Shown one piece after another: positions 1,424 through 4,273 of a stretch of DNA of 4,273 bases. The position numbers and the translations under genes were made by a program. Origin of the DNA: Qubevirus faecium; sequence record FJ539135.1. The stretch is one strand, 5' to 3'. The notes under the pieces are model-generated. The model saw only the letters and a list, made by a program, of their open reading frames with translations, was not told the origin of the DNA and did no database searches. Each line of letters begins with the position of its first letter. Within the stretch, counting starts at the first letter, position 1.

Positions 1424-1822
1424 ATGGCAAAATTAAATCAGGTAACTCTTTCCAAACTTGGAAAGAACGGGGATCAGACTTTAACTCTTACACCGCGCGG
1501 GGTAAACCCGACGAACGGCGTGGCGTCGCTGTCTGAAGCTGGAGCTGTTCCGGCTTTGGAAAAGCGCGTGACTGTGTCAGTCGCGCAGCCCTCCCGTAAC
1601 CGTAAGAACTTTAAAGTTCAGATTAAACTCCAAAACCCGACTGCATGCACGAAGGACGCATGTGACCCATCTGTGACGCGATCTGCTTTCGCAGATGTAA
1701 CGCTGTCGTTCACGTCATATTCTACTGACGCAGAACGTGCGCTAATTCGCACTGAGTTAGCGGCTCTGTTGCAGGATCCCTTGATTGTCGATGCGATTGA
1801 CAACCTGAATCCTGCCTACTGA
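1424..1822 (+). CDS. cp: Major coat protein, 132 aa including initiator Met
   Basis: ATG at 1424 gives MAKLNQVTLSKLGKNG...RGVNPTNGVASLS.AGAVPALEKRVTVS..QPSRNRKN.KVQ.K.QNPTAC...CDPSVTR...LNPAY, near-collinear with Qbeta coat as I recall it. Stop is TGA at 1820-1822. The ORF track's start at 1418 is a TTG two codons upstream; ATG 1424 is preferred by homology. Confidence 0.93.
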   Translation: MAKLNQVTLSKLGKNGDQTLTLTPRGVNPTNGVASLSEAGAVPALEKRVTVSVAQPSRNRKNFKVQIKLQNPTACTKDACDPSVTRSAFADVTLSFTSYSTDAERALIRTELAALLQDPLIVDAIDNLNPAY

Positions 1823-2419
1823 GCGGCGTTACTGGTAGCCTCGTCCGGCGGTGGGGATAACCCCTCAAAGCCAGACGTTCCGGATCTTCCAGACGTCAAA
1901 CCGCCCGACGGAACGGGGCGCTATACGTGCCCCTTCGCTTGTTACCGCCTCGGTAGTATTTACGAGGTGGGTAAGGACGGTTCTCCTGACATTTACGAAA
2001 GGGGAGACGAAGTCTCGGTTACTTTCGATTACGCTCTCGAGGATTTCCTTGGGAACACGAATTGGCGTAACTGGGATCAGCGATTGTCATCATATGACTT
2101 AGCTAATCGTCGTCGTTGCCGTGGCAACGGGTACATTGACTTAAACGCTACCGCGATGCAGTCAGACGAATGTGTTCTGTCTGGCCGCTACCCGGTACGT
2201 AAGGTCAAGTTTCCCGGCGCATTTGGCTCCATCAAGTATCTCTTGAACATTCAAGGTGATGCCTGGTTGGACTTATCCGAGGTGACAGCATACCGCTCCT
2301 ACGGAATGGTTATTGGTTTCTGGACAGACTCTAAAAGTCCGCAGCTACCAACCGATTTCACGCAGTTTAACAGTGCTAACTGCCCTGTACAGACGGTGAT
2401 AATCATACCCTCACTTTAA
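1424..2419 (+). CDS. A1: A1 read-through protein (coat plus C-terminal extension), about 331 aa, made by suppression of the coat UGA
   Basis: I read the frame codon by codon from 1823 to 1966: no stop. The tracked ORF 1967..2419 (GTG start) is in the same frame as coat (both start positions are 2 mod 3), so the frame is open from the UGA at 1820-1822 to TAA at 2417-2419. Extension (..SKPD.P..P....PP.GTG.YTCPF...GNGYIDL..PGAFG..VIGFW..) resembles the Qbeta A1 extension as recalled. Confidence 0.85.
1820..1822 (+). promoter_or_regulatory. Leaky UGA stop codon of coat (programmed read-through site)
   Basis: UGA at 1820-1822, followed by G and 198 in-frame sense codons. In Qbeta the coat UGA is read through at a few percent, by tRNA-Trp, to give A1 (established knowledge). 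Confidence 0.8.
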
Positions 2420-2434: not shown

Positions 2435-2454
2435 TAGCATGTCAAAGACAGCTA
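2435..2454 (+). promoter_or_regulatory. Translational operator hairpin (coat-protein binding site) enclosing the replicase start codon
   Basis: UAGCAUGUCAAAGACAGCUA folds as an 8-bp stem (2435-2438 with 2451-2454; 2440-2443 with 2447-2450), a single bulged A at 2439 and a 3-nt AAA loop at 2444-2446. This is the same architecture as the Qbeta operator (8-bp stem, bulged A, 3-nt loop). The AUG at 2439-2441 lies in the 5' arm. Confidence 0.8.
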
Positions 2455-4169
2455 GTCGCAGAAGAGAAATTACTCAGCTATTGGGTAAGGTCGACATCAA
2501 CTTCGAAGACGACATCCATATGTCTATTGCCAATGACCTCTGTGAGGCCTACGGCATCCCGATGCTTCGTGACGCTGAGGAGTGCATTAACACCGCATTC
2601 CCAAGCCTTGATCAGAGCGCAGACACGTTTCGTGTCGAGTACTTACGCGCCGAGATCCTATCGAAGTTTGACGGGCATCCTCTTGGTATTAATACCGAAG
2701 AAGCAGCATGGGAGAAATTCCTGGCTGCCGAGGAGGGTTGTAGACGTACGAACGAACGACTGTCACAAGCTAAGTACCATGATAATTCTATTTTATCGTG
2801 GGGTGAGCGCGTAATTCATACCGCTCGCCGAAAAATACTTAAGCTAATTGGCGAGTCCGTGCCGTTCGGGGATGTGGCGTTGCGTTGCCGTTTTTCCGGC
2901 GGTGCAACGACCTCGGTGAACCGTTTACACGGCCATCCGTCGTGGAAGCATGCCTGTCCGCAGGATGTTACCAAACGCGCACTCAAGTATCTGCAAGCCT
3001 TTAAACGGGCATGCGGTGACGTTGTAGATTTACGCGTCAACGAGGTGCGCACTTCAAATAAAGCAGTCACTGTTCCGAAGAATAGTAAGACTGATCGCTG
3101 TATCGCTATCGAACCCGGGTGGAATATGTTTTTTCAACTCGGTGTAGGTGCGGTGCTACGCGATAGGTTGCGCTTATGGAAGATTGATCTTAATGACCAA
3201 TCGACCAATCAGCGTCTCGCGCGGGATGGGTCTCTGCTAAATCATTTAGCTACCATAGACTTATCCGCAGCCAGTGATTCGATAAGCTTAAAGCTAGTTG
3301 AATTGCTGCTCCCTCCTGAATGGTACGACCTTTTAACGGATCTCCGATCCGATCAAGGCGTTTTACCTGATGGACGAGTTGTGACCTATGAGAAAATATC
3401 CTCCATGGGAAATGGCTACACTTTCGAGCTTGAGTCGCTTATTTTCGCGGCGCTCGCAAGAAGTGTGTGCGAGTTACTAGAAATCGACCAATCTACTGTT
3501 AGCGTGTACGGGGATGATATAATCATCGACACTCGTGCCGCAGCTCCATTAATGGATGTCTTCGAATACGTTGGGTTTACGCCTAACAAGAAGAAAACGT
3601 TCTGCGATGGACCCTTCCGCGAATCGTGCGGTAAGCACTGGTTCCAAGGGGTAGATGTAACGCCCTTTTACATACGCCGACCAATTCGTTGCCTTGCTGA
3701 TATGATACTCGTTTTGAATAGTATCTACAGATGGGGCACTGTTGATGGCGTGTGGGATCCTAGAGCACTGACCGTATACGAAAAGTATCTCAAATTGCTG
3801 CCAAGAAATTGGCGACGCAACCGGATACCGGACGGCTACGGAGACGGAGCTCTCGTCGGATTGGCTACGACGAACCCGTTCGTTATAGTTAAGAATTATT
3901 CAAGACTATACCCGGTATTAGTTGAAGTCCAGAGGGACGTCAAGCGCAGCGAGGTAGGTAGTTATCTGTACTCCCTACTCCGCAATCGCGAGACACGTTA
4001 CAGTCCTTTCCTGCGTGACGCAGATAGGACTGGTTTTGATGAAGCGCCGCTAGCTACTAGCCTTCGTCGCAAGACAGGTCGGTACAAAGTAGCGTGGATT
4101 CAGGACAGTGCCTTCATCCGGCCCCCGTATTTCATTACGGGCATTCCCGAGGTGAAGCTTGCAAGCTAG
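2439..4169 (+). CDS. rep: RNA-dependent RNA polymerase (replicase beta subunit), 576 aa
   Basis: ORF 2439..4169, stop TAG at 4167-4169. N-terminus MSKTAS as in Qbeta replicase. Conserved blocks include CRFSGGATT, NKAVTVPKNSKTDRCIAIEPGWNMFFQLG, LATIDLSAASDSISL, VTYEKISSMGNGYTFELESLIFA, the catalytic YGDDII at 3507-3524 (GDD at 3510-3518), FRESCGKH, VDVTPFYIR and IPDGYGDGALVG. Confidence 0.95.
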   Translation: MSKTASRRREITQLLGKVDINFEDDIHMSIANDLCEAYGIPMLRDAEECINTAFPSLDQSADTFRVEYLRAEILSKFDGHPLGINTEEAAWEKFLAAEEGCRRTNERLSQAKYHDNSILSWGERVIHTARRKILKLIGESVPFGDVALRCRFSGGATTSVNRLHGHPSWKHACPQDVTKRALKYLQAFKRACGDVVDLRVNEVRTSNKAVTVPKNSKTDRCIAIEPGWNMFFQLGVGAVLRDRLRLWKIDLNDQSTNQRLARDGSLLNHLATIDLSAASDSISLKLVELLLPPEWYDLLTDLRSDQGVLPDGRVVTYEKISSMGNGYTFELESLIFAALARSVCELLEIDQSTVSVYGDDIIIDTRAAAPLMDVFEYVGFTPNKKKTFCDGPFRESCGKHWFQGVDVTPFYIRRPIRCLADMILVLNSIYRWGTVDGVWDPRALTVYEKYLKLLPRNWRRNRIPDGYGDGALVGLATTNPFVIVKNYSRLYPVLVEVQRDVKRSEVGSYLYSLLRNRETRYSPFLRDADRTGFDEAPLATSLRRKTGRYKVAWIQDSAFIRPPYFITGIPEVKLAS

Positions 4170-4239: not shown

Positions 4240-4267
4240 GAGGGTGGGCTCTGCTTTGCCCACTCTC
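4240..4267 (+). other. 3'-terminal stem-loop 2 (about 10 bp, 8-nt loop), followed by a single-stranded CUCCCA tail
   Basis: 4240-4249 (GAGGGUGGGC) pairs with 4258-4267 (GCCCACUCUC) with one G-U wobble; loop at 4250-4257. The genome ends ...CUCCUCCCA-3', the characteristic levivirus CCCA terminus. Confidence 0.6.
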
Positions 4268-4273
4268 CTCCCA

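Follow-up and report, generated by a model that had tools for sequence, protein, structure and literature searches.

The window, the whole stretch of DNA analysed here, is the 4273-nt genome FJ539135.1 of Qubevirus faecium, a group IV allolevivirus of the SP/FI type. Four genes are laid out on its plus strand: maturation/A2 at 52-1404, coat at 1424-1822, an extension of the coat frame that reaches 2419, and replicase at 2439-4169, with the end of A1 at 2419 lying just upstream of the replicase start. These coordinates coincide exactly with the annotation of BR1 (FI strain, FJ539134, also 4273 nt), including its "read-through protein" CDS at 1424..2419. In a megablast comparison with annotated phage records, BR1 is 95.1% identical over 100% of the genome, SP is about 91% identical, and HB-P22, HB-P24, NL95 and FI are 78-83% identical; the group IV matches span 97-100% of the query. 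The Qbeta match is confined to a 300-nt stretch of approximately 75% identity. By nucleotide identity, then, the lineage is group IV (Qubevirus faecium: SP, FI, NL95) rather than group III.

The genome has already been deposited, since a sequence look-up returned exact matches for its maturation (ACT66761.1), coat (ACT66762.1, "capsid protein [Qubevirus faecium]") and replicase (ACT66764.1) proteins, all from Qubevirus faecium. The series ACT66761-ACT66764 follows directly on ACT66757-60 of BR1, and by analogy with the BR1 numbering ACT66763.1 should be the read-through protein. A1 written with tryptophan at the UGA had no exact match in the look-up of the protein collection; this may reflect no more than how the recoded position is written in the deposited translation. 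Related sequences also occur outside the phage records. Positions 71-2781 of the 2783-nt metagenome contig L018 (MAVO01000006.1) are 93.5% identical to positions 12-2725 of the genome, and Logan run assemblies contribute further members to the protein clusters of the genome, the contigs being up to about 4.2 kb long. At the 5' end (1-20), GGGG lies within the GC-rich, hairpin-like sequence GGGGUAGGCCCCGUAAGGGGCCUGCC, and the 3' end (4255-4273) reads ...CUCCUCCCA. Levivirus replicase templates typically have a G-rich 5' end and a CCA 3' end, and the genome therefore seems complete at both ends. An Rfam scan of the whole genome at E <= 1 gave zero family matches.

The major coat protein gene (1424..1822, plus strand) comprises 132 codons including Met, followed by the UGA stop, as delimited by the Pfam Levi_coat match and by the capsid protein coordinates of FJ539134. 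Residues 2-132 match Pfam PF01819 (Levi_coat) with 187 bits against a cut-off of 25. The coat C-terminus reads ...DNLNPAY and is followed by TGA at 1820-1822. This stop, the candidate leaky codon (plus strand), stands in the context UAC UGA GCG GCG UUA, as read from the sequence and its translation. The UGA is kept in 18 of the 18 genomes and contigs examined. At the coat start (1404-1424) the Shine-Dalgarno match is weak: -3.1 kcal/mol, whereas the maturation and replicase starts reach -9.1 and -8.7. In the mechanical ORF list this ORF begins with TTG 1418, which precedes the annotated ATG 1424 by two codons.

An earlier note on this DNA had proposed that the coat UGA at 1820-1822 is followed by 198 further codons of open frame, up to a TAA. 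Translation of 1424-2419 bears this out, with 198 sense codons at 1823-2416 and TAA at 2417-2419, and zero in-frame stops between 1823 and 1966, the interval in which a misread stop had been of concern. The read-through extension (1823..2419, plus strand, 198 codons and TAA 2417-2419) is delimited by this open frame, by the identity to relatives and by the dN/dS ratios. The full A1 (minor capsid/read-through) CDS occupies 1424..2419 on the plus strand, in agreement with the FJ539134 coordinates and with the homologous CDSs; it has 331 codons if tryptophan is placed at the UGA. With that residue and with the initiator Met removed, predicted A1 has 330 amino acids and 36.0 kDa, the roughly 36-kDa product that had been anticipated. 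The predicted junction peptide spanning the UGA at 1820-1822 (plus strand) would be NPAY-W-AALLVASSGGGDNPSK (NPAY-W-AALLVA), tryptophan being the presumed residue. Homologous read-through CDSs are annotated in SP, NL95, FI, HB-P22, HB-P24, Qbeta, MX1, FrBurgundy, FrMerlot, FrSangria and Qbeta-BR12. The extension has 195-199 codons in the relatives and 197 in the metagenome contig. All group IV genomes terminate A1 with a single UAA (UAA GCAACU, at 2417-2425 here; UAA AUCAAA in FI), and all group III genomes do so with a tandem UAG-UAA (for example at 2331-2339 of L005).

An open frame after a stop codon could in principle be a chance run or a decaying relic, with a functional extended protein not being made. 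Against this reading, 198 stop-free codons have a probability of 1.9e-4 at the base composition of the stretch. Only 3 of 20,000 shuffles stayed open, and the other two frames of the same stretch contain 7 and 13 stops. The pattern of substitution also argues against a relic, with dN/dS values of 0.06-0.26 and changes concentrated at third positions. In the coat frame, the Nei-Gojobori method gives dN/dS values for the extension of 0.064 against BR1, 0.091 against SP, 0.12 against HB-P22 and 0.15 against FI, and 0.24-0.26 against HB-P24 and NL95. Thirty-one nucleotides differ from BR1, 25 of them at third codon positions, and six amino acids; the nucleotide identity of 94.8% represents a divergence equal to that of the other three genes. 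These ratios indicate purifying selection on the extension in the coat frame. Compared with NL95 and FI, the extension has 67-72% amino-acid identity and the coat domain 89-91%. At these larger distances the extension is, on the evidence of residue identity, less constrained than the coat domain, as expected of a surface-exposed accessory domain.

The encoded protein provides further evidence on the same question. The first approximately 30 residues of the extension (AALLVASSGGGDNPSKPDVPDLPDVKPPDG) align with the Gly-rich linker and the Pro-rich segment of Qbeta. The Gly/Ser-rich linker itself (1823..1879, plus strand; A1 residues 134-152, AALLVASSGGGDNPSKPDV) was delimited by translation and by alignment with the Qbeta linker TLLIAGGGSGSKPDPVIPDPPIDPPPGTG, and it sits upstream of the Pfam domain match. 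The Pro-rich stretch PDLPDVKPPDG that follows the linker lies at the start of the Pfam Read-through match; the Qbeta read-through domain is described as having a polyproline type II helix (PMC6526423). The globular read-through domain (1880..2410, plus strand; A1 residues 153-329) is defined by Pfam PF16814 and PDB 3RLC_A. PF16814 "Read-through" is matched with 165 bits (cut-off 27; E = 1.9e-48) over profile positions 6-181 of 182. Among solved structures the sole family matched by the extension is the Qbeta "A1 protein" (3RLC/3RLK, E = 5.9e-49), with the 3RLC_A match covering extension residues 15-196, that is 182 of the 198 residues. Alignment of 1823-2419 with other A1 extensions, the comparison suggested in the earlier note, gave amino-acid identities of 97% to BR1, 94% to SP and 45-49% to Qbeta and MX1. 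Across nine extensions of groups III and IV, 58 alignment columns are invariant, including CPF, LGN.WR.WD.RL, RGNGY.DL and GFW.D. Neither a chance run nor a decaying relic fits well with full-length, untruncated Pfam and PDB matches or with 58 columns invariant between the two groups, and we regard this explanation as extremely improbable.

RGD occurs both in A1 (IYERGDEVS, 2000-2008) and in the A2 maturation protein (RRGDFKR, 574-582). A review calls such motifs, in A1 and/or A2, typical of alloleviviruses and proposes that they act in host attachment (PMC6071253). The motif in A1 is shared only by this genome, BR1, SP and HB-P22; because it is missing in NL95, HB-P24, FI, Qbeta and MX1, it is not a conserved requirement of the read-through domain.

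Mechanical gene calling lists a separate 150-aa ORF at 1967..2419 (plus strand), which starts at a GTG and stays in the same frame as the coat gene. It could be read as a gene in its own right, with translation starting at this GTG instead of arriving by read-through, and its place in the mechanical list as a GTG-started ORF speaks for this. Several lines of evidence speak against it. At the position of GTG 1967 the relatives have GAG (BR1, NL95 and HB-P24), GTC (SP), GCG (FI), GTA (HB-P22) and CCT (Qbeta). The anti-Shine-Dalgarno duplex at 1967 reaches -3.2 kcal/mol, versus -9.1 for the maturation and -8.7 for the replicase start, and 34% of all positions in the genome offer a duplex as good or better. 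Some 100 nt before 1967, at extension residue 15-20, the sequence is already homologous to the A1 domain, and between the UGA and 1967 the frame has no stop and shows purifying selection. Since the GTG is unconserved and lacks a Shine-Dalgarno sequence, and since A1 homology starts upstream of it, 1967..2419 is not a separate gene, as the earlier note had held. On these sequence comparisons the independent gene is effectively refuted, and we give it next to no probability. The ORF is best described as an artefact of mechanical calling that corresponds to the distal three-quarters of the extension, and for annotation it should be merged into the coat-A1 read-through CDS 1424..2419 with a recoded UGA.

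A second overlapping ORF, at 1851-2102 on the plus strand and in the +1 frame relative to A1, was considered as a possible hidden gene such as a lysis gene. It would encode 83 aa from a GTG start that lacks a Shine-Dalgarno sequence. This ORF is open in the present genome, in BR1 and in SP. Because stops interrupt it in NL95, HB-P22, HB-P24 and Qbeta, it is not conserved, and to judge from this distribution it is probably not a gene.

UGA read-through of the coat gene almost certainly yields the minor capsid protein A1 in this genome. In the genome itself this is supported by the open frame, by domain homology, synteny and purifying selection, and by the fact that the UGA and its context are conserved. 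Tryptophan insertion, the read-through rate, the presence of A1 in virions and its necessity for infection would carry over by analogy with work on Qbeta and SP. In the mechanism that we propose, ribosomes starting at AUG 1424 would mostly terminate at UGA 1820-1822 through RF2, giving the major coat protein of 132 codons. Occasionally (in about 5% of passes in Qbeta) a near-cognate tRNA-Trp would decode the UGA, and translation in the same frame would go on through 198 codons until UAA 2417-2419. This would yield the ~36-kDa A1, composed of the coat domain, a Gly/Pro-rich linker and the globular read-through domain. A few copies of A1 would stand in for coat subunits in the capsid, their additional domain pointing outward, and A1 would be needed for infectious particles, as in Qbeta.

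The Qbeta precedent is well documented. Reading of the UGA as tryptophan, read-through at about 5% and a role in infectious particles are given in PMC6071253, PMC7026636 (Table 1) and PMC6526423, and the same three sources state what the earlier note had put forward, that Qbeta A1 is a minor capsid component needed for infectivity. The original work behind these reviews, as they cite it, is that of Weiner and Weber (1971/1973). Priano et al. (1995), cited in PMC6526423, report by their title that three proteins of Qbeta and SP are interchangeable in a complementation system. Coat read-through to A1 is the founding example of programmed stop-codon read-through (Weiner and Weber 1971/1973, cited in PMC6071253 and PMC7026636).

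The context of the stop differs from that of Qbeta in the way that had been pointed out: UGA-G here and UGA-A there, the sequences being UAC UGA GCG GCG in this genome versus UAU UGA ACA in Qbeta. All nine group IV sequences (8 genomes and the metagenome contig) have UAC UGA GCR GCG UUA, and all nine group III sequences (6 genomes and three Qbeta-like environmental contigs) have UAY UGA ACN. As 9 of 9 group IV sequences share UGA-GCR, UGA-G is a fixed trait of group IV and not a peculiarity of this genome. A wider survey of the stop context returned SP, FI and two Qbeta-like contigs from IMG/VR, and one SP-like and one Qbeta-like contig from a metagenome scan; every sequence added from these sources fits the +4G/+4A split, within a small sample. 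The 15 nt that follow the UGA in group IV (GCR GCG UUA YUG G) are nearly invariant despite 20% genome divergence.

Termination at UGA-N in E. coli reportedly follows the order U > G > A ~ C (Poole, Brown and Tate, 1995). Context alone predicts somewhat less read-through in group IV than in Qbeta. From the Qbeta side, tRNA-Trp reportedly misreads UGA especially readily in E. coli when A follows it (Engelberg-Kulka 1981, cited in PMC5289835), and UGAA is said to bind RF2 relatively weakly (PMC5373646). We found no measured read-through rate for the group IV UGA-G in the literature. Since UGA-G is said to terminate better and UGA-A is reported to favour misreading, the rate in this genome may be lower than that of Qbeta, or other features may determine it; the suggestion in the earlier note that read-through efficiency may differ is thus a reasonable one.

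RNA structure around the stop is one such candidate feature. RNAalifold, applied to 7 group IV genomes, weakly suggests an outer stem that encloses the UGA (1816-1828 with 1946-1956, plus strand), and predicts an inner stem (1841-1852 with 1900-1911, plus strand) in which Gly-linker codons (GGY GGY GG) pair with Pro-rich codons (CC GCC NG). The UGA and its +4 to +6 bases would form part of the 5' arm of the outer stem. For the whole fold (1816..1956) in these 7 genomes, 93% of cells are paired and five pairs are changed on both sides, and its covariation score was reached by 2 of 500 shuffles; the UGA-enclosing stem is kept in 92% of cells. The single-sequence fold around the stop has z = -2.3. 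Three pairs of the inner stem are changed on both sides among the group IV genomes, and in this fold model the composition of the linker peptide and the inner RNA stem may be mutually constraining. In group III the UGA is predicted to lie in the loop of a small hairpin, and an analogous inner GGUGGUGG/CCGCCGCC stem is present in the prediction.

These features raise a variant of the main reading, in which read-through is Qbeta-like but tuned in group IV by UGA-GCR-GCG together with the UGA-enclosing stem, so that details of the mechanism and the rate would differ. The split at +4 (G in 9/9 group IV, A in 9/9 group III sequences) favours such tuning, as do the nearly invariant bases 3' of the UGA and the stem that group IV keeps around the UGA while group III holds it in a hairpin loop instead. 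Several points speak against it. The structure was derived from the same 7 fairly close sequences, its covariation term is small (-0.36 kcal/mol), and the UGA-enclosing helix has only one pair changed on both sides. Because levivirus RNA is densely structured everywhere, a stem near the UGA needs no link to recoding. The conserved bases 3' of the UGA also encode the conserved peptide AALL. Moreover, a stem with the stop codon in its 5' arm would already be melted at decoding, and the inner stem begins 19 nt past the stop, by estimate beyond the mRNA channel of the ribosome. We therefore consider tuned read-through of this kind unlikely. The more specific proposal, that the fixed UGA-G (GCR GCG UUA) and the predicted 1816-1828/1946-1956 stem are a lineage-specific tuning which would compensate for a tetranucleotide that by itself should terminate better than UGA-A, is in our judgment quite unlikely. 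Read-through of the coat UGA into A1, with the details taken over from Qbeta, remains the preferred reading.

Comparison with the known systems places this locus closely. The read-through proteins of BR1 (FJ539134, ACT66759.1) and SP (X07489, CAB37299.1; UniProt P09677, "Minor capsid protein A1") share its gene order, and BR1 also its coordinates, 1424..2419. All three genomes have the common context UAC UGA GCR GCG UUA CUG GUA GCC, 198 codons and a single UAA, and in the extension BR1 and SP differ from the present genome by strain-level substitutions only. Qbeta A1 shares the coat domain, the single leaky UGA, the Gly/Pro linker, the globular domain and the site between coat and replicase. 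It differs in the sequence of the extension (43-49% amino-acid identity), in the +4 base (A in Qbeta versus G here), in the length of the extension (195 versus 198 codons), in the group III terminator (UAG-UAA versus a single UAA) and in the predicted RNA fold around the UGA, for which Qbeta and group III are unlike this genome. Luteovirus CP-RTD and the like belong to eukaryotic systems with other signals, and no homology is to be expected between luteovirus-type CP read-through extensions and Qubevirus A1. The likeness lies in the arrangement, as luteovirus CP-RTD also arises at a leaky coat stop and yields a minor component of the capsid that is exposed at the surface and needed for transmission or infection (PMC7026636, Table 1).

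By every computable criterion, the A1 of this genome is a member of the Qubevirus (Allolevivirus) A1 read-through family. Coat-A1 read-through is already known; it is a textbook case, annotated in every Qubevirus record, and the proteins of this genome are in GenBank. The point of interest is a quantitative one, the ratio of A1 to coat in the group IV UGA-G context versus the group III UGA-A context. Were the lineage-specific tuning true, the group IV stop would be a bacterial example in which the level of read-through depends on more than the stop codon and its +4 base.
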